Origin: Rikenellaceae bacterium
Lineage (GTDB): Bacteria; Bacteroidota; Bacteroidia; Bacteroidales; Rikenellaceae
Assembly: GCA_017379895.1 (NCBI GenBank)
Contig: JAFNVH010000078.1
Coordinates: 142-64,141, forward strand
DNA length: 64,000 nucleotides
Reading direction: 5' to 3'
Shown here: positions 1,689 to 47,494 of the stretch, in pieces
Layout of the letters: each line of letters begins with the position of its first letter
Numbering within the stretch: the stretch's first letter is position 1
Made by a program: the position numbers and the translations under genes
Notes under the pieces: generated by a model
Seen by the model: the letters and a program-made list of their open reading frames with translations, nothing else
Database searches by the model: none
What the model was told of the DNA's origin: nothing

Positions 1689-1759
1689 AGGTCTGAAGCG
1701 GATTCGAACCGCTGTAGCAGCTTTTGCAGAGCTGTGCCTAGCCACTCGGCCATCAGACC
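1689..1759 (-). tRNA. tRNA-Cys (anticodon GCA)
   Basis: Reverse complement: GGTCTGATGGCCGAGTGGCTAGGCACAGCTCTGCAAAAGCTGCTACAGCGGTTCGAATCCGCTTCAGACCT. The acceptor stem is GGTCTGA/TCAGACC. The anticodon stem-loop is CAGCT-CTGCAAA-AGCTG. The T-arm is GCGGTTCGAATCCGC. Total length is 71 nt. Confidence 0.9.
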
Positions 1760-1969: not shown

Positions 1970-3649
1970 ATGACACGACTCAAAACTTTACTCACAGCAG
2001 TCGCTTTGCTCGCCTCGGGCGTGGCTTTGGCCTGCACAAACCTTATCGTTACGCGCGGCGCATCGACCGACGGATCGATCATCGTCAGCTATGCTGCCGA
2101 TTCGCACCAACTCTATGGCGCACTATACAAGTACAACGCCCCCAAGAAGGGTTATCCCAAAGGCTCGTATATGCCTGTTTATGATTGGGATAGCGGCCGA
2201 TATATGGGTCAGATCAAGCAGGTCGAGCGCACCTATTCGACCGTTAGCAATATGAACGAGCACTCGCTCGTCATCACCGAAACCACATTTGGCGGTCGCC
2301 CCGAATTAGAGGATTCGACCGGCATTATGGATTACGGCTCGCTGATCTACATCACCTTGCAGCGTGCAAAGACCGCACGTGAGGCTATCGACGTAATCGT
2401 TTCGCTCACAGAGGAGTACGGCTACGCATCGAGTGGCGAATCGTTCACCATTGCCGACACCAACGAGGTATGGATTATGGAGTTGATCGGCAAGGGTTGC
2501 AAGCTCAACGAGCGTGGCGACAATATTCACAAAGGTATCGTTTACGTGGCTCGCCGCGTGCCCGATGGTTACGTCAGCGCACACGCAAACCACTCGCGTA
2601 TCTCGACCTTCCCAAAGAACGATCCAGAGAACTGCGTTTATGCTGACGACGTGATCTCGTTTGCTCGCGAGGCTGGTCTGTACGAGGGTTCGGACGAGGA
2701 TTTTAGCTTCTGCGACACCTACGCTCCCGCCGATTTTATGGCGTTGCGCGGTTGCGAGGCTCGCGTTTGGAGCTTCTTCCGTATGGTTGCAGACGATATG
2801 GATCAGTACCTCGACTACGCAATGGGCCACAACCCCAAAAACCGTATGCCTCTGTGGGTTAAGCCCCGCGCGAAGGTATCGGCAAAGATGGTTTTCGACG
2901 CTATGCGCGACCACTACGAGAGCACCCCGATGGATATGACCAAGGATGTTGGCGCAGGCGGCAACGGCCTGCCTTATCGCTGGCGTCCGATGAGTTGGGA
3001 GGTTGACGGCGTTGAATACACCAACGAGCGCGCAATCGCAACTCAGCAGACAGGTTTCTGGCTTGTGGCTCAGACGCGTAATTGGCTACCAAATCCGATT
3101 GGCGGTGTTCTGTGGTTTGGCGTAGACGATGCATCGACATCGGCTTTGACACCCATTTACTGCTCGACAACCGAGGCTCCCGAGTGCTTGGCTGAGGGCA
3201 ACGGCTCGATGATGGAATATTCGCCTACATCGGCATTCTGGCTGTTCAATCGCGTATCAAACTTCGCATACCTGCGCTACAATATGATTGGCGCGGAGAT
3301 TCGCGGCAAGGTTGACGCTTGGGAGAACGCTCGCCTGGTAGAGCTGGCCGAGATTGACGCTCAGGCCGTGGCATTGTACAAGAAGAGCCCCAAGAAGGCG
3401 CAGGAGTTCATAACTCGTTATTCGACCGAGAAGGCACAGAAATTGTTTGCTGAGTGGTCGGCACTGGATCAGTATCTGTTGGTGAAGTATATCGACGGTA
3501 ACGTGAAGCGCCAGAACGAGGGCGGCTCGTTCCAGGACAATGGCGAAGGTCGCTCGATTCCCGCAATGCCAATGTTCCCTGGTTATGACGAGAAGTGGAA
3601 GCGCGCAGTTGCCGAGGACGCTGGCGAGACACTTAAGGTAATCAAATAA
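1970..3649 (+). CDS. C69-family (cysteine) dipeptidase, secreted
   Basis: A signal peptide is followed by the N-terminal nucleophile motif ...LACTNLIVTRGAST... typical of peptidase C69. The product is 559 aa. Confidence 0.8.
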   Translation: MTRLKTLLTAVALLASGVALACTNLIVTRGASTDGSIIVSYAADSHQLYGALYKYNAPKKGYPKGSYMPVYDWDSGRYMGQIKQVERTYSTVSNMNEHSLVITETTFGGRPELEDSTGIMDYGSLIYITLQRAKTAREAIDVIVSLTEEYGYASSGESFTIADTNEVWIMELIGKGCKLNERGDNIHKGIVYVARRVPDGYVSAHANHSRISTFPKNDPENCVYADDVISFAREAGLYEGSDEDFSFCDTYAPADFMALRGCEARVWSFFRMVADDMDQYLDYAMGHNPKNRMPLWVKPRAKVSAKMVFDAMRDHYESTPMDMTKDVGAGGNGLPYRWRPMSWEVDGVEYTNERAIATQQTGFWLVAQTRNWLPNPIGGVLWFGVDDASTSALTPIYCSTTEAPECLAEGNGSMMEYSPTSAFWLFNRVSNFAYLRYNMIGAEIRGKVDAWENARLVELAEIDAQAVALYKKSPKKAQEFITRYSTEKAQKLFAEWSALDQYLLVKYIDGNVKRQNEGGSFQDNGEGRSIPAMPMFPGYDEKWKRAVAEDAGETLKVIK

Positions 3650-20258: not shown

Positions 20259-20500
20259 AGTGTGATTAGTTTTATTTATAATTTACGATTTCACCAAGTA
20301 AAAATATTATATAGACAAAGGTAAGAAAAATTATCCAATATTCATAATCAGACGATTAAATATCTTCGCTTTTTTCTGCGTTTTTTAGCCATAAGATAAA
20401 AAAGTTAAAAAGCAACTATTGGCGCATTTTTTTTTACACAATTTTATCACAACCTTTGTAGTGTCAAAATAGGAAACGAAACAACCCTTAAATCACAAAA

Positions 20501-21910
20501 ATGCTCACAAACACACAGGCATATAGCGATATATGGCAGAACTGCCTTTCGCAAATCCGAAAGCAGACCTCCGAGGAGGAGTTTGCGCGCTGGTTTGAGC
20601 CCATCGCGCTGCTCAACTTCGACGGTCAGACTCTCAGCCTGCGTGTCCCGAACGAAAGCTACGTCAAGCAGATCGAGCATAACTATATTCCTTTTATTAA
20701 GCCGATCATTGCTTCATTGTTCGGGCAACAAACCCGCGTGAGGTACGCGATACCCAAATCGGATCAGAGCATACCACTGTCAAAAAACAGTGATACGACC
20801 GCTATTTCGCAGTTCAAAACTCAAACCGACACTGCAAATATAAAGAATCCGTTTGTAATTCCGGGCCTCAAAAAGATTATTATTGATCCGCAGCTCAGTC
20901 CAAACTACACTTTTGACTCGTTTATCGAGGGCGAGTGTAACCGTTTGGCACGCTCAGCCGGTATGGCTGTGGCTGTCGATCCGGGCAACACACCGTTCAA
21001 TCCATTATATATATATGGTGACTCGGGACTCGGCAAGACCCACATCGTGCAGGCTATCGGACACGAAATACGTCAGCGACACCCGCAAATGCAGGTATTG
21101 TACGTATCGATGAATAAATTTATGGCACAGTATCAGACCGCTGTTCGCAACGGCGAGGTGCCCGATTTCATTCATTTCTACCAAATGGTGGATACGTTGA
21201 TCATTGACGACATTCAGGAGTTGGCAGGCAAGGCGGGAACGCAGACTGTATTTTTCAACATCTTCAACCACCTGCACCTCTCGGGTAAGCAGCTGATTTT
21301 CACATCAGATAAACCGCCCGTAGAGTTGAAGGATATCGAGGCTCGACTGCTCACTCGTTTCAAGTGGGGTCTGTCGGCGCAGCTCAATACGCCCGATCAT
21401 CTGACCAAGTTGAAGATCATTCGCAGCAAAGCAGCCAAGATGAACGCACAGCTCTCGGAGGAGGTTGTGGCATACTTAGCTGACAACATCAGCGCAAACG
21501 TACGCGAGATCGAGGGCGCACTGTCGTCACTCGTGGCTCACTCGTCGTACCTCGGCAAGAAGATCACCATTACGCTGACCAAAGAGGTTTTGAAGGCATA
21601 TATCAAACTATATCAGAAGGAGATTACGATCGACCATATTCAGCAGGTCGTTTGCCAATACCTCGATTTGGACGTCGAGCGCTTCAATTCGACCGAGCGC
21701 ACACGCGAGATCGCTCAGGCTCGCCAGATCGCAATGTATCTGAGCAAGCAGCACACCAAAGCACCTCTGACTCAGATCGGTGCAGCTATCGGCGGTCGCA
21801 ACCACGCAACTGTACTTCACTCGTGCAAGGCTGTTGCAAACCTGATGGAGACCGACAAGGCATTCCGTCATCAGGTCGAGGAGATCGAAAAGTTGGTTTT
21901 GGCAAAGTAG
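20501..21910 (+). CDS. dnaA: chromosomal replication initiator DnaA
   Basis: Contains the Walker A motif GDSGLGKTH, IDDIQ, the AAA+ sensor motifs, and the C-terminal DNA-binding domain (...IAMYLSKQHT...IGAAIGGRNHATVLH). Confidence 0.95.
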   Translation: MLTNTQAYSDIWQNCLSQIRKQTSEEEFARWFEPIALLNFDGQTLSLRVPNESYVKQIEHNYIPFIKPIIASLFGQQTRVRYAIPKSDQSIPLSKNSDTTAISQFKTQTDTANIKNPFVIPGLKKIIIDPQLSPNYTFDSFIEGECNRLARSAGMAVAVDPGNTPFNPLYIYGDSGLGKTHIVQAIGHEIRQRHPQMQVLYVSMNKFMAQYQTAVRNGEVPDFIHFYQMVDTLIIDDIQELAGKAGTQTVFFNIFNHLHLSGKQLIFTSDKPPVELKDIEARLLTRFKWGLSAQLNTPDHLTKLKIIRSKAAKMNAQLSEEVVAYLADNISANVREIEGALSSLVAHSSYLGKKITITLTKEVLKAYIKLYQKEITIDHIQQVVCQYLDLDVERFNSTERTREIAQARQIAMYLSKQHTKAPLTQIGAAIGGRNHATVLHSCKAVANLMETDKAFRHQVEEIEKLVLAK

Positions 21911-22579: not shown

Positions 22580-23620
22580 ATGGCAGAAAAGACTCAGCCC
22601 GAGGTTCAGACTAAACCTCAGGTAAACCCCGAAAAATTGAAGGTGCTCAGCGCCGTAATGGATAAAATCGAAAAGGATTTCGGCAAAGGCTCGATCATGA
22701 AGATGAGCAGCCAGGCGGTTGGCGATATCGCAGTCATTCCATCGGGCTCGGTAACCCTCGACGCTGCTTTGGGCGTAGGCGGTTATCCCAAAGGCCGCGT
22801 GATCGAAATCTATGGCCCCGAGTCGTCAGGTAAGACTACTTTGGCTATTCACGCTATTGCCGAGGCACAGAAGGCTGGCGGCATTGCCGCTTTCATCGAT
22901 GCAGAGCACGCATTCGACAGCTACTATGCTCAGAAATTGGGCGTAGATGTTGACAATCTGCTCATTTCGCAGCCCGACAACGGCGAGCAGGCTCTCGAAA
23001 TTGCCGACTCATTGATTCGTTCGAGCGCGATCGACATCATCGTAATCGACTCTGTGGCAGCACTTACGCCCAAAGCCGAGATCGAAGGCGAGATGGGCGA
23101 CTCGAAGATGGGCTTGCAGGCTCGACTGATGTCGCAGGCACTGCGCAAACTCACCGCAAGCATCGCTAAAACCAAGACCGTTTGTATCTTCATCAACCAG
23201 CTGCGCGATAAGATCGGCGTGATCTACGGCAATCCCGAGACTACTACGGGTGGTAACGCACTGAAATTCTACGCCAGCGTGCGTATCGATATCCGCAAGG
23301 CGAGCGTCATCAAGGACGGCGACGAGCAGTTGGGTACCCGCGTGCGCGTGAAGGTGGTTAAGAACAAGGTGGCTCCTCCGTTCCGCAAGGCAGAGTTCGA
23401 CATTATGTTCGGCGAGGGCATCTCGAAGATTGGCGAGGTTCTCGACCTGGGTGTTGATCTGGGCGTGATCAAGAAGTCAGGCTCGTGGTTCTCGTATGGC
23501 GATCGCAAGCTCGGCCAGGGCCGCGACGCCGTTAAAGATCTGCTGATCAACGACCTTGAGCTGCAAGCCGAGATCGAGGCTAAGGTGCGCGAGGCTATGA
23601 AAGCTGCTAAGGATAACTAA
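22580..23620 (+). CDS. recA: recombinase RecA
   Basis: Contains the Walker A motif GPESSGKTT, the L1/L2 regions, and [11 protein letters not shown]. Confidence 0.97.
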
Positions 23621-25893: not shown

Positions 25894-26376
25894 ATGGAGC
25901 CCTCTACTATATTCGCCATTGCAGCAGGTGCGATAATCATATTCGGGCGCATCATCAATCGCATTGTCGAACGAAGCAATATCAGCACCGACAACACTGC
26001 ACAAGACCTCGAGTTGCAAGATGAGCTCGATGACGAAAGAGCGCTCCCTACGCACCAAAACAGAAGCGAGGAAGACTCTCTCACAGGCTCGATATTGGCT
26101 CAATTCTTAGCCGGAAAGCACTACAACGAGATGAACAGCGAAAGCACACAAACAGTATTTACGCAACGCATAAGCTCCCAGAAATTCGCTTCAAGTTCAA
26201 ACGCTACGCCAAAGCAAAAGATCAATAAAACGCAAACAAAAGCCCAGACTCAGGAGCAGATTACAGAGTGCAGCGTTGCCGACGATGAAACGCTAACGTC
26301 TGAGATCCTAGAAGATTTTGACCTGAAAAAGGCCGTGATATTATCGGAAATACTCAAACCAAAATTCGACGAATAG
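25894..26376 (+). CDS. hypothetical membrane-anchored low-complexity protein
   Basis: Has an N-terminal hydrophobic helix followed by an acidic, Q/T/S-rich stretch. It lies 8 nt downstream of the relA/spoT stop. I recognise no family. Confidence 0.4.
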   Translation: MEPSTIFAIAAGAIIIFGRIINRIVERSNISTDNTAQDLELQDELDDERALPTHQNRSEEDSLTGSILAQFLAGKHYNEMNSESTQTVFTQRISSQKFASSSNATPKQKINKTQTKAQTQEQITECSVADDETLTSEILEDFDLKKAVILSEILKPKFDE

Positions 26377-26396
26377 AACAATAAAATTAAAGATAT

Positions 26397-26783
26397 ATGG
26401 CAACAATTTTTACTCGCATAATTAACGGCGAGATCCCCAGCTACAAGGTAGCCGAGGACGAAAACTTTTACGCGTTCCTTGACATCAATCCGCTAATGAA
26501 AGGCCACACTTTGGTCGTTCCTAAGCAGGAGGTTGACTACCTGTTTGACCTTGATGACAACATCTTACAGAAGATGACCATATTCGCAAAGAGGGTAGCA
26601 GCACAAATTAAATGTAAAATAGAGTGTAAAAAGGTAGCAATGATTGTTCTTGGCCTCGAAGTTCCCCACGCACACATCCATTTAATCCCCATGAACACCG
26701 AATCTGACGTTGATTTCCGCAAGGAAAAGCTCAATTTGACTCCAGAAGAGTTTGCTCAAATCGCAAAGGAGCTCAGCGAATAG
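26397..26783 (+). CDS. HIT-family (histidine triad) protein
   Basis: Contains the histidine triad HAHIHLIP. The product is 128 aa. Confidence 0.85.
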   Translation: MATIFTRIINGEIPSYKVAEDENFYAFLDINPLMKGHTLVVPKQEVDYLFDLDDNILQKMTIFAKRVAAQIKCKIECKKVAMIVLGLEVPHAHIHLIPMNTESDVDFRKEKLNLTPEEFAQIAKELSE

Positions 26784-26817
26784 AGCAGAGTAGAGTCAGC
26801 ATAAAGTACACAAAATC

Positions 26818-26850
26818 AAACGAGTAGCAATGTTTATTGCTACTCGTTTT
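26818..26850 (+). terminator. rho-independent terminator after the HIT gene
   Basis: A 13-bp perfect stem, AAACGAGTAGCAA / TTGCTACTCGTTT, merges into a T-run. The islet's left direct repeat begins 3 nt later. Confidence 0.8.
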
Positions 26851-26852
26851 AC

Positions 26853-26872
26853 TTTATTTAACATAATATAGT
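26853..26872. repeat. left direct repeat TTTATTTAACATAATATAGT (bottom strand carries TTATGTTAAAT)
   Basis: Read directly. ATTTAACATAA at 26856-26866 is the reverse complement of TTATGTTAAAT, the XerD arm of E. coli dif (GGTGCGCATAA-TGTATA-TTATGTTAAAT). Confidence 0.85.
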
Positions 26873-27373
26873 TTTCAACAAAAATACACACAATCACAAG
26901 TCTAATAACAATAAAATTTAAGGCGAAAAAGAAGTAGAGTGGGGTATAATTACAAATGTAACCATACTAAATAAGTGTATTGATTACTTTTGTAAACCCA
27001 AATCATTGTTAATTATTTACTTTTGTGATGATGCGGGTATTTCGCAACAGGTCCCGCCAAAACCATCATTAAGCACCCAGACACAAAGTTAAACGCTTGA
27101 AATATCACAATACATCATCGCTAATAATCAATGATTTACGAAATTTATATAAATTAAAAGATGGCTAATATGCAAGTTCTGCAACATAACGAAAAGTTTT
27201 ACATACATTGGGAGAAGATCATACACAAAAGTTGAGAATAATCAGTTATTTAGGCATTATTACATAAAGTAATGAATAATGCGCATAAAAACTAACGATG
27301 CCGTGCGGTATATTATATTTACACCTGTAAACACTTTGTTAACAATTAACATATTTACAAATTTAACATTTGG

Positions 27374-27405
27374 TTTGTTTCACAAATAAAAAATGTTTAT
27401 ATTTG
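27374..27405 (+). promoter_or_regulatory. Bacteroidota-type promoter of the HTH gene with an overlapping inverted repeat
   Basis: TTTG at 27374-27377 is separated by a 20-nt spacer from TATATTTG at 27398-27405, matching the TAnnTTTG -7 consensus. The inverted repeat CACAAAT (27381-27387) / ATTTGTG (27401-27407) overlaps the -7 box. The ATG is at 27421. Confidence 0.6.
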
Positions 27406-27420
27406 TGAAAAATTGTGTTT

Positions 27421-27882
27421 ATGCGAGAAAAACTACTAAAATTGATGAAGAGCGAAAAACTCTCATCAAGCCGTTTGGCAGAAATGCTCGAAATTCAGCC
27501 ATCGAGTATCTCTCATATTCTCTCAGGAAGAAATAAACCCAGCTTCGATTTTCTGGTTAAGATTCTGCGTCGTTTCCCGACACTGAATCCTGATTGGCTA
27601 TTGCTCGATGCTGAGCAGATGTATCGTTCGAGCGACAACCTGGAACAGCGACTTGGCAACACCAACCACAAAGAGTCGCAGTCACAACACAACGCGACTC
27701 CAAGTGCGGATCAGCTGTCGAGCAGCCGTGAACAGTCGACCGAACAGCCAAAAGAAAATTCGACGAATCGACCAATGCAAAACATTGGGAATTTGCCCGT
27801 GCAGTCAAAACCCAATGCAGACATTGAACGTGTAATTGTTCTTTACTCCGACAAATCATTCGAGGCATTTTATCTCAAATAA
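27421..27882 (+). CDS. XRE-type helix-turn-helix transcriptional regulator
   Basis: MREKLLKLMKSEKLSSSRLAEMLEIQPSSISHILSGRNKPSFDFLVKILRRFPTLNPDWLL is the common Bacteroidota HTH_XRE pattern. It is followed by a Q/S-rich linker and a short C-terminal segment. The track's start at 27415 is a GTG; I prefer the ATG at 27421, given the promoter position. Confidence 0.7.
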   Translation: MREKLLKLMKSEKLSSSRLAEMLEIQPSSISHILSGRNKPSFDFLVKILRRFPTLNPDWLLLDAEQMYRSSDNLEQRLGNTNHKESQSQHNATPSADQLSSSREQSTEQPKENSTNRPMQNIGNLPVQSKPNADIERVIVLYSDKSFEAFYLK

Positions 27883-28077
27883 TGCCCAAACACATTACGC
27901 GGAATAATATATATATACAAATAAATAGGTGTATTTTTTGTAGATATAGGCGAATTTTTTTTGCGACAGAGGAGAGGACGGGTCGACAAATGTAAACGGA
28001 AAGCGACACCTAATTACAACAATTAACACGTATTTCACAAGTGAAAACACTCCAAGGACGGTTAAATATTTGAATTA

Positions 28078-28486
28078 AGGCGGCGCAGACCTCAACGGTA
28101 CGGGGTTTGCGCTGTTCAATTATTGGACCTACCAAACGGCAAAAATAGGTAGACGCGGGTGCGAGGGCGTTTACGCCCGAGCGCGTGGGCGGCGAGAGCC
28201 GCCGTCGGCAAGGAGGCGGGCACAACCCGCCGACGCGCAGCGCGAGGGACGGAGCAAGCAGGGCGCAGCGCGCGCAGCGACGCCGCGGAGCGATAGCGAC
28301 GCCCCGAGCGCGGAGCGTATGCCGACACACGGCGGGCGGCGGGGGCGAGCGCGGAGCGCGGCGCAACGCCGCAGAAAAAAACCCCGCGCCCGCCCCGAGA
28401 AACGAGGCGCAGCGAGGGGCTGCATATACTCGACCGATGCGCTGCCCGCGCTTTGAAATCCTGCGCGGGCGAGCGACGGGCGCAAA
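28078..28486. other. non-coding GC-rich hairpin cluster (function unknown: structured RNA, ssDNA origin or packaging signal, or a REP/BIME-like array)
   Basis: My hand count over 28151-28420 gives 208/270 G+C (~77%), with A=53, T=9, G=117 and C=91 on the + strand. The hairpins I read are:
- GGGCG-TTTA-CGCCC (28165-28178)
- GGCGGC-GAGA-GCCGCC (28188-28203)
- GGCGGG-CACAA-CCCGCC (28215-28231)
- GCCG-ACACA-CGGC (28321-28333)
- GCGGCG-CAA-CGCCGC (28358-28372)
- a long imperfect hairpin at 28382-28419
- GCCCGCGC-11nt-GCGCGGGC (28444-28470)
- GCGCAGACC / GGTTTGCGC (28083-28112)
The 12-mer GAGCGCGGAGCG occurs twice (28306-28317 and 28347-28358), and AGCGACGCC also occurs twice. Confidence 0.6.
28375..28419 (-). 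terminator. possible rho-independent terminator of the 274-aa/74-aa operon
   Basis: On the - strand an imperfect GC hairpin (28419 to 28382) is followed by T7 (28381 to 28375). It lies about 70 nt downstream of the 74-aa stop. Confidence 0.45.
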
Positions 28487-28711
28487 CTATTTGACGGGGA
28501 CGCAATAGGTCACACGCTGTTCGAGCGGGGTCAATTCATCGAATTCGATTGGGTCGATAGTCGAGAGGTCTATTACGGTTGAGGTCGAGCGTCCGAGGCA
28601 TTTCATTTCGGGGAAATATGAAACCGCCATACCGTCGCAAATACGTATAGGCGCATTTTGCAGACCGTTAGCGACGGCATAATTATACAACATTTTGGGA
28701 GTTATTAACAT
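28487..28711 (-). CDS. hypothetical protein (74 aa), translationally coupled to the upstream ORF
   Basis: The ATG at 28711 lies 2 nt after the TAA (28716-28714) of the 274-aa ORF. I recognise no family. Sequence: MLITPKMLYNYAVANGLQNAPIRICDGMAVSYFPEMKCLGRSTSTVIDLSTIDPIEFDELTPLEQRVTYCVPVK. Confidence 0.45.
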   Translation of the reverse strand: MLITPKMLYNYAVANGLQNAPIRICDGMAVSYFPEMKCLGRSTSTVIDLSTIDPIEFDELTPLEQRVTYCVPVK

Positions 28712-28713
28712 AG

Positions 28714-29538
28714 TTATAAAATATTTGGGTTATTATATGCCGAGCCAAACGCTTGGAAATGTTTATATCTCAACGGCGAAAAATACGCATCTTCAAAACT
28801 TAACTCATATTCTTCGTTTTCGAAATCCTTATCCCTATAAATATGCAGGTACGATGAACCGAGAAATGAAATTTGTTCGATATCGTCCCGCAAATCTTCA
28901 ATCGCAATGCGCAGCGGCGCAATAATCTTTGTAGTAGTGGAGCCGACCGCTGCGACCTCTATAATATTATCGTCGAGCGTGCGAATATATGGAGTTTCAA
29001 ACGGGAAACAATTTTTATAAACCACACGCAAACGAGCCTCAACGCTGCGGGTATATTTGTAGCGGTCGCGGGAGTTGTTACCGTGTTTTTGTATATAGAT
29101 ATGAAATTTGTTCCAACGATTAGAAAAATATTTATCAGTAGAGGCGAGGCGATGAGCAAAAAGGGCAGTAGTATAAGCGTCCGAAAAAACAATATCGGAA
29201 ATGTAATGCCAACAGCCATTTTTGCGGCGGGCGAGGTTGCACATTCTTACGCCGCTAAATCGTTGGGCGCGTAAATGACGATTTTTGTTACATTGTTTCA
29301 TAAGCGACGGGAACACCTGCACCGCATCGAGAGCGTCTTGACCCGTAGCCTTGAAAGTAATACGCCAACTTGACGGGTAATAATCGAGGGCACGTTCAAG
29401 GCACGAACGATGATACTCAAAACCTTTATACTGATTTAGATTATTAAACACTGCAAACGCACGTTTTTTGCCCGTGCGACGCAGTAACTCGGGGCGAGGC
29501 TTAGGCAATTCGCTAACCTCTCTAAGTCGTTTAGTCAT
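28714..29538 (-). CDS. hypothetical protein (274 aa); a weak, eyeballed resemblance to rolling-circle replication initiators is not established
   Basis: This is a long ORF in an AT-rich context. The track's start at 29574 is a TTG lying upstream of a -7-like box (TACCTTTG on the - strand, 29579 to 29572), so I use the ATG at 29538 (MTKRLREV...). Candidate motifs are WRITFKAT, CWHYISDIVF, KFHIYIQKH and GNNSRDRYKYTRSVE. None is a clean HUH or Rep_trans signature. Confidence 0.55.
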   Translation of the reverse strand: MTKRLREVSELPKPRPELLRRTGKKRAFAVFNNLNQYKGFEYHRSCLERALDYYPSSWRITFKATGQDALDAVQVFPSLMKQCNKNRHLRAQRFSGVRMCNLARRKNGCWHYISDIVFSDAYTTALFAHRLASTDKYFSNRWNKFHIYIQKHGNNSRDRYKYTRSVEARLRVVYKNCFPFETPYIRTLDDNIIEVAAVGSTTTKIIAPLRIAIEDLRDDIEQISFLGSSYLHIYRDKDFENEEYELSFEDAYFSPLRYKHFQAFGSAYNNPNIL

Positions 29539-29579
29539 AACGTGTTTGCTAATTAGATTATTTAGGTACTGCAAAGGTA

Positions 29580-29607
29580 ATGAAATAATATATATATTAT
29601 GTTAAAT
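29580..29607 (+). repeat. internal dif/cer-like site, inverted relative to the flanking repeats
   Basis: Reads ATGAAATAATA-TATATA-TTATGTTAAAT. The XerD-arm 11-mer at 29597-29607 is perfect. The 6-nt centre TATATA matches the E. coli dif centre TGTATA at 5 of 6 positions. The left arm is poor. Confidence 0.7.
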
Positions 29608-29734
29608 TAGCGTATTCATATATAAAATATAGGGGAGCGCTTGTGCAGGTGATTTGAGTGCACCTCTTCGGCGGATTTGCTGCGATGATGAGCAGATACT
29701 CTTCTGGTAAATTTGAAAGTTGAATAGCACCTCT

Positions 29735-29754
29735 TTTATTTAACATAATTTAGT
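29735..29754. repeat. right direct repeat TTTATTTAACATAATTTAGT
   Basis: It is 19/20 identical to 26853-26872. ATTTAACATAA lies at 29738-29748. Confidence 0.85.
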
Positions 29755-29789
29755 GATTTTAGCGAGCGTACATAAATATACACAAAGAG

Positions 29790-29820
29790 TTTGTCGCGCA
29801 GAGAAAAATTCCTATTTTTG
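29790..29820 (+). promoter_or_regulatory. Bacteroidota-type promoter of the immunity-like gene
   Basis: TTTG at 29790-29793 is separated by a 19-nt spacer from TATTTTTG at 29813-29820. The ATG is at 29844. Confidence 0.6.
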
Positions 29821-29843
29821 TATGGACGCAATGATCGATAGAT

Positions 29844-30389
29844 ATGAGAACACCACAAACACGTATCGGAGATATTTTTGAGATTCCCATTACCCCACTG
29901 ACAAAACGATATATGCAATTTATACTCGTTGACTCTTCTTGTCTGGGTGGATGGTGTATTCGAGTTTTCAAAAAGGAGTATCACGCAGATGATAAACCAA
30001 CTATGGACGAGATCGTATTTGGTGAGGTCGATTTTTATTGTCTGACATATGCCATAGGACAAGGCGTCGTTAAGGAATTATGGACCAAGGCGGGAAAATC
30101 CAAAGAGCTTGGTAGTTTCGATAATATAATCTTCAAGCAGAAAGACTATGTACACCGAGGCTGGCGAATATGGAGAGCAAATCAAGAAGTCAAGCTATAC
30201 CGAACGCTCTCCAAGAAATTCGCAAAGGCAAGTATGGGTGCTCTGTTAGCTCCTTCAAGTGTGGTCAAAAGAATACAGACCGGCAGATGGCGAGATATAC
30301 CCAATGTATATGATGACTATAAGGGAGCATCATTATTTGAACGATTGATCGGTGCCGAATTTATACCGAAGGAATTAAAAGTTATATAA
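29844..30389 (+). CDS. immunity-protein-like protein (polymorphic-toxin immunity family such as Imm26-like); orphan
   Basis: The N-terminal ...RIGDIFEIPITPLTKRYMQFILVD... resembles the 'GDIF.IPL..g.y..g.vl' opening of several Bacteroidota immunity families. No toxin gene lies next to it. Confidence 0.4.
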   Translation: MRTPQTRIGDIFEIPITPLTKRYMQFILVDSSCLGGWCIRVFKKEYHADDKPTMDEIVFGEVDFYCLTYAIGQGVVKELWTKAGKSKELGSFDNIIFKQKDYVHRGWRIWRANQEVKLYRTLSKKFAKASMGALLAPSSVVKRIQTGRWRDIPNVYDDYKGASLFERLIGAEFIPKELKVI

Positions 30390-30393
30390 ATCA

Positions 30394-30427
30394 AAGCCCT
30401 CCTGAGCCGAAAGGTTCAGGAGGGCTT
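30394..30427. terminator. bidirectional terminator between the immunity-like gene and rubrerythrin
   Basis: A 15-bp stem, AAGCCCTCCTGAGCC / GGTTCAGGAGGGCTT (one G-U pair), closed by a GAAA tetraloop. Confidence 0.75.
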
Positions 30428-30450
30428 CATTTTGTGAGGGAGCTACCCTA

Positions 30451-30999
30451 CTACTTGAAGTAACGCTTGTACAGACCCTCGAAGCCCTTGCCGTGACGAG
30501 CCTCGTCCTTACACATCTCGTGAACGGTGTCGTGGATTGCGTCCAGGTTTAGCTTCTTTGCAAGAGTTGCAATGCGCTTCTTATCCTCGCAAGCACCCTG
30601 CTCAGCCATCATACGCTTGTAAACGTTGGTCTTGGTATCCCAAACAACCTCGCCCAGCAACTCGGCAAACTTAGCTGCGTGCTCTGCCTCCTCCCAAGCG
30701 TAGCGCTTGAAAGCCTCAGCGATCTCGGGATAACCCTCGCGGTCAGCCTGGCGACTCATTGCCAGATACATACCCACCTCGGTGCACTCGCCCATAAAGT
30801 GATCCTTCAAGCCCTGAAGCACCTCTTCGTCAACACCCTTAGCAACGCCAATCACGTGCTCGTCAACAAACTGCAGATCACCTTCCTGCTCTACTACCTC
30901 AACAAACTTGTCAGCGCCAACCTTGCACAGAGGGCACTGATCGGGAGCTGCATCACCCTCGTGAATATAACCACATACGGTACATTTCCATTTCTTCAT
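30451..30999 (-). CDS. rubrerythrin-family protein with reversed domain order (N-terminal rubredoxin-like, C-terminal ferritin-like)
   Basis: The N-terminus has CTVCGY...CPLC. The di-iron four-helix-bundle E..H motifs (EEAEHA, EARHG) follow. Confidence 0.85.
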
Positions 31000-47355: not shown

Positions 47356-47362
47356 CAAAAAA

Positions 47363-47458
47363 GGGTAAGCTACTTATATCGCACCGCTACAACCACCTAC
47401 CCTTGCTTGCTTCCGCACCTGGGGGATTCAGTAGGAGCTGGTCGTATAAGACTTACCC
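47363..47458 (-). ncRNA. ffs: signal recognition particle RNA (4.5S type)
   Basis: Reverse complement: GGGTAAGTCTTATACGACCAGCTCCTACTGAATCCCCCAGGTGCGGAAGCAAGCAAGGGTAGGTGGTTGTAGCGGTGCGATATAAGTAGCTTACCC. It forms one long hairpin with complementary ends. The domain IV apex CAGGUGCGGAAGCAAGCAAGG parallels E. coli CAGGUCCGGAAGGAAGCAGCCAAGG, including the GGAA tetraloop. A canonical promoter lies just upstream on the - strand. Confidence 0.8.
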
Positions 47459-47463
47459 GAGTG

Positions 47464-47494
47464 CAAATGTACGGATTTTTCTTATATTTGCAAA
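47464..47494 (-). promoter_or_regulatory. promoter of the SRP RNA
   Basis: On the - strand, TTTG (47494 to 47491) is separated by a 19-nt spacer from TACATTTG (47471 to 47464). The RNA 5' end lies 6 nt downstream. A + strand TATATTTG (47484-47491) for mltG overlaps it. Confidence 0.65.

Follow-up and report, generated by a model that had tools for sequence, protein, structure and literature searches.

A putative IMEX-like integrative element within a dif-like site of a Rikenellaceae chromosome

Positions 27917-29597 of the window (the whole 64-kb stretch of DNA that was analysed) are best explained, with moderate confidence, as an IMEX-like 1.68-kb integrative and excisable Rikenellaceae element that also exists as a circle of 1.7-2.2 kb and for which we infer the use of host Xer-type recombinases. 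The element and its junctions are composed of the following features:

27917-29597, minus strand: mobile element, 1,681 bp including one 14-bp core, missing from empty-site genomes
27903-27916, no strand: left copy of the 14-bp direct repeat AATAATATATATAT, the core common to attL, attR and attB
29584-29597, no strand: right copy of the 14-bp direct repeat AATAATATATATAT
27899-27926, plus strand: attL, GCGGAATAATA-TATATA-TACAAATAAAT, from the junction alignment with empty sites and an attL table of eight loci
29580-29607, plus strand: site B, which is attR, ATGAAATAATA-TATATA-TTATGTTAAAT

Evidence for a discrete insertion comes from five independent empty-site contigs (L008, L010, L014, L015 and L016) that are about 97% identical to the window and lack 27917-29597 only, with window positions 26301-27916 joined directly to 29584-30500. 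The 14-bp repeat was found as the overlap of the window's BLAST segments on these contigs. The presence/absence polymorphism has exact junctions, with five empty-site contigs versus at least seven occupied ones from different samples. The empty contigs form a separate lineage, diverged by about 3%, and all relatives with 78-88% flank identity are occupied at the same site; a single precise loss after vertical descent explains this as parsimoniously as repeated integration does. Among these relatives, the element is more diverged than its flanks (68-81% versus 78-88% identity). Two distant loci extend the comparison: L030, in which the element adjoins ZnuA in a different chromosomal neighbourhood, and L031, both encoding proteins that match the 274-aa protein of the window by profile only (22-26% pairwise identity). 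Related elements were also recovered as two independent circular metagenome assemblies, L021 (1,893 bp, from MEGAHIT k141, its ends overlapping by 141 bp and its junction internal) and L033 (2,210 bp, from Logan k31, its ends overlapping by 30 bp). In both, the ORF end of the element is connected to the opposite end, and neither contains an HTH gene or an integrase. Such circular assemblies may instead derive from tandem copies. A recombinase of known family was recognisable neither in the element nor in either circle, and no terminal inverted repeats were found in the element. Searches of PLSDB plasmids, INPHARED phages and IMG/VR gave no match, and those of PHROGs and BFVD no significant one.

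The two junctions are hybrids. In attL, the left arm is chromosomal and the right arm is the degenerate arm of the element; in site B, the left arm is that of the element and the XerD-type arm that of the chromosome, while attB in empty genomes reads GCGGAATAATA-TATATA-TTATGTTAAAT. When given an 8-bp centre, site B reads TGAAATAA-TATATATA-TTATGTTAAAT. The arms TGAAATAA (element) and TTATGTTAAAT (chromosome) are invariant in 10 of 10 occupied loci, including L030 and L031, around a variable centre (TAT-N4-A), and this combination of invariant arms and variable central region characterises the core sites of tyrosine recombinases. Differences between the attL and attR centres are confined to positions 4-8, with positions 1-3 (TAT) and the left arm always in common, locating the crossover to the left edge. 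The XerC-arm consensus is not matched by the left arm, GnAATAATA, whose ATAA is shifted by 2 bp in the standard 6-bp reading. As for the right arm, TTATGTTAAAT is the XerD arm in the dif sites predicted for Flavobacteria and Sphingobacteria (PMC3025954 supplement). Based on this anatomy, the element would have inserted within a chromosomal dif-like attB by site-specific recombination with its own putative attP, TGAAATAA-TATnnnnA-T[AT]C[AC]AAATAA, which would agree with attB in the left arm and the initial central bases and be degenerate on the XerD side. Strand exchange where the left arm meets the central region would leave the 14-bp direct repeat. The catalysts would most likely be host Xer-type tyrosine recombinases recruited via the exact XerD arm, and such a recruitment would make the element IMEX-like.

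The locus contains two further dif-like sites and is flanked by chromosomal genes:

26856-26883, minus strand: site A, 28-bp dif-like, TTTTGTTGAAA-ACTATA-TTATGTTAAAT, the site of the left 20-mer (26853-26872)
29738-29765, minus strand: site C, the site of the right 20-mer (29735-29754), with an exact XerD-type arm
27421-27882, plus strand: Xre-family HTH regulator; 153 aa as called, or 155 aa with the GTG at 27415 as start
29790-29820, plus strand: promoter consensus of the 181-aa gene, TTTG-N19-TATTTTTG, in the chromosomal flank
29844-30389: 181-aa flanking gene, chromosomal

An earlier note had bounded a 2.9-kb islet (26853-29754) by the 20-mers TTTATTTAACATAATATAGT and TTTATTTAACATAATTTAGT, and its description of these repeats was confirmed. 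They are in direct orientation with 19/20 identity, and both hold on their bottom strand TTATGTTAAAT, which forms the XerD arm in E. coli dif. The left one begins 3 nt past the HIT terminator hairpin (26818-26849), and the right one ends 35 nt before the Bacteroidetes-type promoter consensus starting at 29790. With up to three mismatches allowed, no other copy occurs in the 64 kb, and matches occurred in 0 of 100 shuffles. A third exact TTATGTTAAAT, absent from the earlier note, lies at 29597-29607 on the plus strand, inverted relative to the other two; the three are the only exact copies in the window, all inside the 2.9 kb, and arm order on the plus strand is D/C at site A, C/D at site B and D/C at site C. 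The islet itself fared differently. The earlier note had proposed a search for a relative without the whole of 26853-29754, taking its absence as a refutation; no such relative was found, which speaks against the 2.9-kb islet as a mobile unit. Both 20-mer sites persist in genomes that lack the real insertion, the att sites being attL and attR rather than the 20-mers. The empty-site contigs retain HIT, both 20-mer sites, the 560-bp AT-rich spacer and the HTH gene. The latter had been listed as cargo and likened to the "regulator plus replication" content of RS1, a likeness that is lost since the gene lies outside the mobile unit and is missing from L021 and L033. What stands of the proposal is a small, putatively Xer-dependent integrative element without a recognisable recombinase at dif-like sites, and the XerD-arm motif proved meaningful; the boundaries and gene content of the element had to be redrawn.

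The 20-mers are thus two further dif-like sites (A and C) of the locus, not bounds of the element. Within the locus, site A is the strongest candidate for an Xer-type site with both arms complete. Its arms are conserved as [AT][AT]TTGTTGAnn and TTATGTTAAnT in 11 related contigs, with a variable 6-bp spacer that in L019 is TGTATA, as in E. coli dif, and it is found in occupied and empty genomes alike. In the empty-site contigs the 11-mer of site A is the one-base variant TTATGTTAAGT and the right-hand 20-mer site is unchanged; several relatives carry TTATGTTAAGT or TTATGTTATGT at site A, and the motif is exact at sites B and C wherever these occur. At site C of the relatives, CTAAA-TTATGTTAAAT alone is conserved and the other arm is not; sites B and C are 69-354 bp apart. 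The dnaA gene is only 6 kb from the dif-like sites, and no DnaA-box cluster was found in the 64-kb window. The HTH regulator (Pfam HTH_3 match at 7e-9) belongs to the chromosome next to the insertion site, outside the mobile element, and a homologue with 41% identity occupies the same relative position in L031. The 181-aa ORF had no family match, and some relatives carry another gene in its place.

Within the element, two ORFs are accompanied by an extensive non-coding portion:

28714-29538, minus strand: 274-aa ORF, main protein of the element, from an uncharacterised family
28487-28711, minus strand: 74-aa ORF (68 aa per gene callers), conserved partner of the 274-aa gene
29572-29579, minus strand: candidate -7 box of the 274/74-aa operon, Bacteroidetes-type TACCTTTG, from a motif scan, just inside attR
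28374-28425, minus strand: terminator-like hairpin followed by 7xT, downstream of the 74-aa ORF
28130-28370, minus strand: core of a GC-rich block (whole GC-rich stretch about 28125-28480), adenine-poor on the gene-sense strand
27927-28125, minus strand: AT-rich non-coding segment with conserved islands, such as GTAGGTCnAAnnATTGAAC, CGTTGAGG and CCGTTTACAyTTGTCG

The 274-aa protein had no match in Pfam, PHROGs, NCBIfam, PADLOC or PDB sequences, and its family counts 25 representatives among 1.84 billion proteins. Its AF2 model corresponds to a confident predicted fold (pLDDT 86.6, pTM 0.85), for which Foldseek found no match in PDB or BFVD at E<=1e-3. Residues N84, R87, R90, G96, R98, D115, Y244 and G265 are invariant. 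In every locus, the large ORF is followed by a 70-77-aa homologue of the 74-aa protein, which gave no informative family match; its homologues fall into at least 160 clusters from Rikenellaceae/Alistipes MAGs, all annotated as hypothetical protein. The circular junction brings TTTG 19-20 nt upstream of TACCTTTG; the resulting TTTG-N19-TACCTTTG is predicted for the window and was observed in L021, not in L033. Judging from this arrangement, TACCTTTG may be the -7 box of an operon promoter that is completed at the circular junction. The GC-rich block (78% GC and an AT skew of 0.82 at 28200-28399; A 12, C 104, G 77 and T 48 in the 241-nt core) occurs in all relatives, including those with profile-level protein matches, as 0.35-0.85 kb of adenine-poor DNA with 75-82% GC. 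Its nucleotide sequence is better conserved than the ORFs, its hairpins show compensatory changes (covariation support), and folding z-scores are -3.6 and -4.2 for the two strands. The terminator-like hairpin, CCCCTCGCTGCGCC...GGGGCGGGCGCGGGGTTTTTTT, is conserved in L017, L018, L019 and L025, and part of it is registered by the consensus scan; motifs of the AT-rich segment are common to the window and the distant L031. The two proteins and the hairpin array probably serve replication or maintenance of the circle, or the control of recombination.

The involvement of host Xer has to be weighed against a possible, if rather unlikely, alternative in which the 274-aa protein would be a new site-specific recombinase or transposase targeting dif-like sites, leaving host Xer unneeded. 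With an invariant tyrosine (Y244) and three invariant arginines (R87, R90 and R98), besides D115, this protein could itself be a recombinase; its family is strictly linked to att sites at every locus, the confidently predicted fold seems of a type unlike known ones, and insertion sequences of the IS1202 family that target dif and pdif are documented (PMC10132070). In contrast, the protein has no sequence or fold similarity to tyrosine, serine, DDE or HUH enzymes, lacks the invariant His/Lys of the tyrosine-recombinase catalytic set and has no invariant Ser, and the element has no terminal inverted repeats. Furthermore, the junction falls within the dif-like core, not beside it, and the invariant chromosomal arm is the exact XerD arm, as expected with a XerD partner. 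It is improbable that the locus has no active mobility, the segment being ancestral, lost from a sub-lineage by slippage or recombination between the 14-bp repeats and circularised only through the assembly of tandem duplications. The uniform occupancy of relatives at 78-88% flank identity and the separate lineage of the empty contigs are compatible with this scenario, and the (TA)n-rich repeat could support RecA-independent deletion. Yet the same arms and spacing recur in the L030 context and at profile-only protein similarity, which chance microhomology does not explain; circular or tandem junctions were assembled twice, from different lineages and by different assemblers, and the element has diverged beyond its flanks.

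Two other readings concern the dif-like motifs themselves. We give little credence to the motif ATTATGTTAAAT being an operator of the neighbouring Xre-family regulator, its three copies serving transcriptional control of the locus. These copies do lie on both sides of the HTH gene, site C immediately precedes the promoter of the next gene, TTAACAT-like repeats precede the HTH promoter, and the HTH gene and the element co-occur in L031. However, the motif is not palindromic, its 2-mismatch matches occur at chance frequency across the window, the element junction keeps a constant distance from it, the spacer being variable and another arm invariant, and the XerD arm predicted for the phylum is this same 11-mer. 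The roles of operator and recombination arm are not mutually exclusive. That the whole of 26853-29754 is one Xer-dependent islet carrying the HTH, 274-aa and 74-aa genes and the GC block is very unlikely. Sites A and C are in direct orientation, each with an exact XerD arm in the window, and site A has two conserved arms; the chromosomal left arm of site B resembles the element arm in several lineages, as expected of tandem IMEX arrays, and the L031 element is likewise flanked by an HTH homologue. Nevertheless, HIT, site A, the HTH gene and site B are retained in 11 of 11 related loci, the 20-mer sites and the HTH gene are kept in empty-site genomes, this gene is missing from the circles, and conservation at site C does not extend to the non-XerD arm. 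With no relative lacking the whole segment, the islet fails as a present-day mobile unit, and it could be an old composite array.

Compared with known systems, the IMEX-like element of 27917-29597 shares features with several Xer-associated elements. RS1 and CTXphi are likewise small and dif-associated, with an Xre-type HTH gene nearby, but RstA/RstB relatives are absent here, the HTH regulator matches the NCBIfam RstR model at 28 bits against a cutoff of 80, and the element has no inverted dif-like pair to make the folded single-stranded attP of CTXphi. The Alpavirinae microvirus prophages of Bacteroidales also lack an integrase and are flanked by dif-like direct repeats (13-bp att), and the use of host XerC/D has been proposed for them as here (Krupovic & Forterre 2011, PMC3091885); they differ by their size of 6.3 kb and by capsid and rolling-circle Rep genes, neither of which the element has. 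Acinetobacter pdif (dif) modules resemble the locus in their clustered Xer-type sites of alternating orientation, separated by short modules, and in an XerD arm better conserved than the XerC arm. These modules are plasmid-borne, whereas the element is chromosomal, is inserted within one site, is flanked by direct rather than inverted half-sites, and has been seen as a free circular form. IS1202-family members are about 1.5 kb long and also specific to Xer sites, but carry terminal inverted repeats of 24-26 bp and insert 5 bp beyond the XerC arm (PMC10132070), in contrast to the element, with no inverted repeats, no recognisable transposase and a junction inside the core. The 8-bp centre resembles that of ColE1 cer, in which 11-bp arms flank an 8-bp centre and exchange is by XerC only (PMC5357621), an architecture that would fit the TGAAATAA-TATnnnnA-TTATGTTAAAT reading and a left-edge crossover; cer, however, serves to resolve plasmid multimers rather than to integrate an element, and it comes with about 180 bp of accessory sequence. 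The putative attP is by its anatomy closest to those of VGJphi and TLCphi, IMEXs of V. cholerae. The element differs from these in phylum (Bacteroidota, Rikenellaceae), in size (1.7-2.2 kb versus 4.7-7.5 kb), in a central region that reads as 8 bp, in a Xer dependence that is only putative, and in its cargo of two orphan proteins and a GC-rich hairpin array, among which phage genes, an HUH Rep or a XafT homologue were not detected. Like the element, VGJphi and TLCphi have no integrase of their own, and their double-stranded attP corresponds to the target in the arm on the XerC side and the adjoining part of the centre, with an XerD side that is divergent or degenerate (on the XerD side of the centre in VGJphi, in the XerD arm in TLCphi); their integration likewise yields two direct sites, one of which keeps the chromosomal XerD arm, and they too can excise to a circle (PMC5357621).

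Exact look-up of the HIT protein and of the 274-aa protein in public assemblies revealed two kinds of contigs, occupied and empty, within one species-level population. The occupied contigs (L001/L007, L002, L003/L011, L004, L005, L006 and L009; L numbers designate public contigs and loci related to the window) are 99.9-100% identical to the window, and the five empty ones (L008, L010, L014, L015 and L016), derived from other samples, have flanks 96-98.6% identical to it. In the empty contigs, the HIT gene is followed by a 36-aa ORF, the HTH gene and then directly by the 181-aa gene; window positions 26301-27916 abut 29584-30500 with a 14-bp overlap, and the site reads GCGCGGAATAATATATATAT joined to TATGTTAAATTAG. 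The real indel is therefore 27917-29597, a segment of 1,681 bp that includes one copy of the 14-bp repeat AATAATATATATAT (27903-27916 and 29584-29597) and contains the 274-aa ORF, the 74-aa ORF and the GC-rich block. An earlier note had drawn the mobile unit as a 2.9-kb islet, 26853-29754, bounded by two 20-mers. As a unit, this islet fails its own empty-site test: the empty genomes retain the HTH gene, the 560-bp AT-rich spacer and both 20-mer sites, the right-hand one unchanged and the left-hand one as a one-base variant, TTATGTTAAGT. The HTH-bearing segment between sites A and B may itself be an integrated module of older date; among related loci, no relative devoid of it was found, and no shuffling of this module was seen. 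The features referred to in the text are the following.

Features of the locus and RNA genes of the window
1689-1759: tRNA (Rfam)
26856-26883, minus strand: site A, TTTTGTTGAAA-ACTATA-TTATGTTAAAT, which holds the left repeat of the earlier note
27374: HTH promoter, TTTG-N20-TATATTTG
27421-27882: HTH gene (Xre-family regulator), chromosomal neighbour of the element
27899-27926: attL
27917-29597: mobile element
about 28125-28480: GC-rich block
28487-28711, minus strand: 74-aa ORF
28714-29538, minus strand: 274-aa ORF
29580-29607: attR (site B), ATGAAATAATA-TATATA-TTATGTTAAAT in the standard 11-6-11 layout
29738-29765: site C, the right repeat of the earlier note, in which only CTAAA-TTATGTTAAAT is conserved
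47359-47465: small SRP RNA (Rfam)

The repeats themselves were found as the earlier note had described them. The 20-mers at 26853-26872 and 29735-29754 are in direct orientation and 19/20 identical, they are the only two matches in the 64-kb window at up to three mismatches (shuffles gave none), and each contains TTATGTTAAAT on the bottom strand. Their surroundings also agree with that description, the hairpin of the HIT terminator ending at 26849 and a Bacteroidetes promoter consensus, TTTG-N19-TATTTTTG, starting from 29790. A third exact copy of TTATGTTAAAT, absent from the earlier list, occupies 29597-29607 of the top strand. The 64 kb has no further exact copy, all three falling inside 2.9 kb, and the next-best match in the window has one mismatch. 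This 11-mer is the XerD arm of E. coli dif, GGTGCGCATAA-TGTATA-TTATGTTAAAT. It is also the XerD arm of the dif sites predicted for Flavobacteria and Sphingobacteria, the predictions for Bacteroidia being weak (PMC3025954 supplement).

On the + strand, the orientation of sites A, B and C alternates (D/C, C/D, D/C), and the locus therefore resembles a recombination hot spot built around Xer-type sites. The non-XerD arms differ among the three sites. Site A keeps both arms in 11/11 related contigs around a variable 6-bp spacer (TGTATA in L019), and is the best candidate of the locus for a complete Xer site. Sites B and C are inverted relative to each other and separated by 69 to 354 bp among relatives (window spacer 29608-29737 and its equivalents in L017-L026); inversion of this spacer was looked for, and every contig displayed the same orientation. 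The non-XerD arm of site A, TTTTGTTGAAA, agrees with the right arm of difSL from streptococci, TTTTCTTGAAA (PMC5357621), in 10/11 positions, and the element arm (A)TGAAATAA has TGAAA in common with Helicobacter difH, AGTTATGAAAA; these likenesses may be a lead towards a single-recombinase Xer system, or a coincidence.

The empty site, attB, is a single dif-like site, GCGGAATAATA-TATATA-TTATGTTAAAT, and the integrated copy lies between two dif-like sites in direct orientation, with attL retaining the left arm, attR the exact XerD arm, and a 14-bp core in common. The search for relatives of the 274-aa protein led to ten further occupied loci, comprising close relatives (L017, L018, L019/L020, L023, L024, L025 and L026/L027) and relatives detected by profile only (L029, L030 and L031), which share 22-26% pairwise identity with the protein of the window; L030 adjoins a ZnuA/ABC transporter operon, a chromosomal context unlike that of the window. 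In all loci with the junction on the contig, the sequence upstream of the large ORF reads [A/G]TGAAATAA - TAT-N4-A - TTATGTTAAAT, with the variant TGAATGAA - TATATACA - TTATGATAAAT in L029. A tyrosine-recombinase core site would be expected to look like this, with a variable centre between two invariant arms. At attL, an arm supplied by the element (TACAAATAAAT, TTCAAATAAAT or TTCCAAATAAT) comes after the left arm and the centre, and it agrees with the XerD arm in only 5-6 of 11 positions. The centre differs between attL and attR in L017, L018, L023, L026 and L031, at positions 4-8 of the 8-bp reading, where attL has the base expected from attP and attR the base expected from attB; we therefore infer a crossover at the left edge of the centre. 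A fixed ancestral locus that underwent a single microhomology deletion accounts neither for the recurrence of the junction in a different genomic context nor for the circle junctions described below, and a role of the motif as an operator leaves the junction geometry unexplained.

Two contigs document junctions between the element ends. L021 (ERZ27298556, MEGAHIT k141, 2,034 bp) starts and ends with the same 141 bp and has an internal junction in which the far end of the element, ...CTGCAAAGCTAATGAAATAATATATAG, is joined to its ORF end, ATTCCAAATAATAGGTGTATTTTTT..., and represents either a 1,893-bp circle or a tandem junction. L033, a Logan contig (k=31, 2,240 bp) from the distant P0030 lineage, likewise starts and ends with the same 30 bp (k-1), giving a 2,210-bp circle; this repeat covers the far arm, centre and element arm, plus 10 nt of the element interior, and the attP, ATGAACGAA-TATATACA-TTACAAAAAAA, agrees with the L029 attR. 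Apart from both ORFs (large and small), the GC block and an AT-rich tail, the circles contain nothing else; no HTH gene and no recombinase domain was found in either. Over the left arm and the first part of the centre, the circle attP agrees with attB, and its XerD-side arm is degenerate (5-6/11). As tandem copies would yield the same assemblies, the evidence for a free circular form is strong but not final. In the lineages of the window and of L021, joining the ends into a circle brings a TTTG to 19-20 nt before the -7 box of the operon, TACCTTTG, which could raise operon expression from the free form; this promoter reading is given little weight because the arrangement is absent from L033.

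Among relatives, the left HIT-HTH flank is constant and the gene to the right of site C varies, being a 181-aa ORF, an Acyl_transf_3 gene, a Rce1-like gene or a 57-aa ORF. A 41% identical HTH homologue of the same architecture flanks the distant element of L031, which ties the regulator either to the landing site or, in function, to the element. Two direct repeats containing TTAACAT, AATTAACATAT and ATTTAACATTT, lie at 27344-27371, immediately before the HTH promoter, and may represent an operator with some relation to the XerD-arm motif; two-mismatch matches occur at chance frequency across the window. The label "immunity-like" previously given to the 181-aa ORF (29844-30389) is unsupported, because this ORF has no match in Pfam, PHROGs, NCBIfam or PADLOC. 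L024 carries about 415 extra bp (2920-3333, called as a 49-aa ORF) between attL and the HTH gene, found in no other relative. On the ERZ28018794 contig, recA (L007/L001 4184-5224) is called as two ORFs of 139 and 202 aa; the window (22580-23620) and L008 have it as a single intact ORF of 346 aa.

The GC-rich block lies downstream of a terminator-like hairpin, has a GC content of 75-82% and is nearly A-free on the gene-sense strand. Its 241-nt core comprises 12 A, 104 C, 77 G and 48 T, and adenine occurs 0-5 times per 100 nt in the regions compared (window 28130-28370; L026 2150-2450; L024 2350-2600; L033 1150-2000), a near-absence that leaves all six frames free of stop codons. Spurious ORFs of 145-237 aa are occasionally predicted in the block by gene callers, and a coding role was rejected on the basis of 1- and 2-nt indels between close relatives, the lack of agreement among gene callers and the lack of family matches. 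The block was found in every lineage, with a length ranging from 0.35 to 0.85 kb because it is modular and partly made of repeats of about 92 nt; these include a 90% identical, 92-nt tandem duplication in L031 (1344-1527) and repeats 91-93 nt apart in two distant lineages (L031 1726/1819; L033 1633/1724). It is more conserved at the nucleotide level than the ORFs, some motifs persisting despite protein identities of only 22-26%. Both strands fold better than shuffled sequences (z-scores -3.6 and -4.2), and RNAalifold revealed hairpins with compensatory changes, such as GGGCG/CGCCC to GCCCG/CGGGC in L024, as well as paired insertions; the covariation score, obtained with eight sequences of which several are closely related, exceeded all 500 shuffles and all slid controls. 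The block may act as a structured RNA or as single-stranded DNA, from either strand. Rfam gave no match to the block or the element at the gathering threshold, and only chance-level ones at E<=10; at the gathering threshold, the window contains only the Bacteroidales small SRP RNA (111.7 bits) and the tRNA. L025 (1370-1800) is a decayed copy, with intact large and small ORFs and a lost attL, in which the GC block ends after about 200 nt and joins the HTH flank directly.

The 274-aa protein had no match in Pfam, PHROGs, NCBIfam, PADLOC or a PDB sequence-profile search. A profile search of 1.84 billion representatives identified 25 proteins, nearly all of 265-291 aa. The AlphaFold model (26 sequences; pLDDT 86.6, pTM 0.85) displays an alpha+beta architecture, in which a beta-alpha-beta-beta-alpha-beta unit precedes an alpha-beta-beta-alpha-beta-beta unit. 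Two AF2 models, compared with PDB and BFVD by Foldseek, had no match at E<=1e-3, and only weak ferredoxin-like, KH, LAGLIDADG-like and Rep-like ones with TM<0.3. The invariant residues of the family (N84, R87, R90, G96, R98, D115, Y244 and G265) would suit nucleic-acid binding or catalysis, and match no known catalytic signature. Assignments as an HUH Rep, an AEP primase, a Cas6-like RAMP or a LAGLIDADG protein were dropped because the catalytic motifs are not conserved in alignment A4. At each locus the gene of the 74-aa protein comes after the large ORF (alignment A8), and this protein belongs to a much larger family of at least 160 clusters, all annotated as hypothetical proteins from Rikenellaceae/Alistipes MAGs, many of them from contigs of 1.85-2.25 kb; the copy of the window is MBQ5609841.1 (Rikenellaceae MAG). 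No family was found in Pfam, PHROGs, NCBIfam or PADLOC for the 74-aa, 181-aa and GC-block ORFs, the HTH_3 domain of the regulator being the sole match among the ORFs of the locus.

The element combines a precise, site-specific presence/absence polymorphism, a conserved bipartite att site and circular or tandem junctions with no recognisable recombinase. Based on this att anatomy, it would work like an IMEX (integrative mobile element exploiting Xer), with a probable dependence on XerC/XerD. Host Xer-type recombinases would bind the left arm and the XerD arm and exchange strands at the left edge of the centre, allowing the element to integrate and to excise again; most simply, the 274-aa and 74-aa proteins and the hairpin array would serve circle replication or maintenance, or the activation of recombination. 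The main alternative, in which the 274-aa protein would be the recombinase or transposase itself, of a new kind directed at dif-like sites, is considered unlikely. IS1202-family elements are a precedent for such targeting and have terminal inverted repeats of 24-26 bp, a transposase and an insertion 5 bp from the XerC arm (PMC10132070); the element, however, has no transposase domain and no terminal inverted repeats (end-to-end alignment score 6 vs a shuffle mean of 7.3), and its junction lies inside the core. As for a tyrosine recombinase (R-K-H-R-H/W-Y on an integrase fold), Y244 and three Arg are invariant and no Lys or His is, and the protein has no match to Phage_integrase or any other recombinase and no structural match. 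Pfam, PHROGs, NCBIfam, PADLOC and structural searches yielded no recombinase domain in the element or in either circle, nor was a tyrosine recombinase found among nine further ORFs of the window; an unrecognised recombinase in the element is a possible caveat to the integrase-less reading. The target may be the dimer-resolution site of the chromosome, near the replication terminus. The dnaA gene (20259-21910) lies 6 kb upstream of the locus, with no DnaA-box cluster adjoining it or elsewhere in the window; TTATCCACA had 17 matches with up to one mismatch in the window vs 11.9 expected. GC skew over the 64 kb gave no interpretable switch, and the oriC/terminus signal was uninformative.

Tentatively, and with slightly less than even confidence, we regard these elements as an undescribed family of minimal episomes, 1.7-2.2 kb in size and specific to Rikenellaceae/Alistipes, that alternate between a circle and integration at Xer-type sites and whose parts have no known relatives: a protein of about 270 aa with a new fold, a partner of about 74 aa, and a modular, GC-rich and nearly adenine-free hairpin array more conserved than the proteins. 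The larger protein is possibly a new replication initiator, recombinase or Xer activator, and there is a sizeable chance that the protein and RNA/DNA parts represent new biology. A life cycle of circular and integrated forms apparently needs no more than two small genes plus a structured block, and neither the 274-aa family nor the adenine-poor block has a described counterpart. Database searches with the element DNA and protein gave no match in PLSDB plasmids or INPHARED phages, and IMG/VR scans with protein alignments, the GC-block motif and the att pattern gave nothing. A close relative occurs in only one of 185,579 GTDB species representatives (L023), a JGI metagenome scan gave one short contig (L032), and no published description of such an element was found in the literature. 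As suggested by the at least 160 clusters of the 74-aa family and their many contigs of about 2 kb, this type of element is probably common in a prevalent gut family and goes unrecognised by current catalogues (IMG/VR, INPHARED, PLSDB). If the elements are Xer-dependent, their att sites would reveal the uncharacterised Xer/dif recognition sequence of Bacteroidales, the junction-defined conserved arms and crossover point offering a direct handle on this system, as the integration of mobile elements reportedly did in Legionellales.

Among known systems, the RS1-like regulator cargo proposed earlier does not apply, the HTH gene being part of neither the mobile unit nor the circles; a CTXphi/RS1-type satellite, with its RstR/RstA/RstB gene set, was rejected on this ground, the RstR match of the HTH gene being far below cutoff, and no second dif-like site was found inside the element, although the folded single-stranded attP of CTX takes two of them, inverted. 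Integrase-less microvirus prophages of Bacteroidales do sit between dif-like repeats (PMC3091885), but a Microviridae prophage with VP1 and a rolling-circle Rep had no significant match in PHROGs, BFVD, INPHARED or IMG/VR, and also fails because the element, at 1.7-2.2 kb, is too small. Acinetobacter dif modules are carried by Rep_3 plasmids and bounded by inverted Xer sites. The locus may be a comparable array, with A, B and C alternating in orientation; it is, however, chromosomal, its non-XerD arms differ between sites, and its A-B module showed no shuffling. An 8-bp centre and XerC-only exchange are known from cer, the attP of VGJphi departs from dif on the XerD side of the centre, and the XerD arm of the TLCphi attP is divergent (PMC5357621). 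With its degenerate XerD arm, the attP of the element is not a full dif but is acceptable for a TLCphi-type IMEX, and such elements, if Xer-dependent, would be the smallest IMEXs known.
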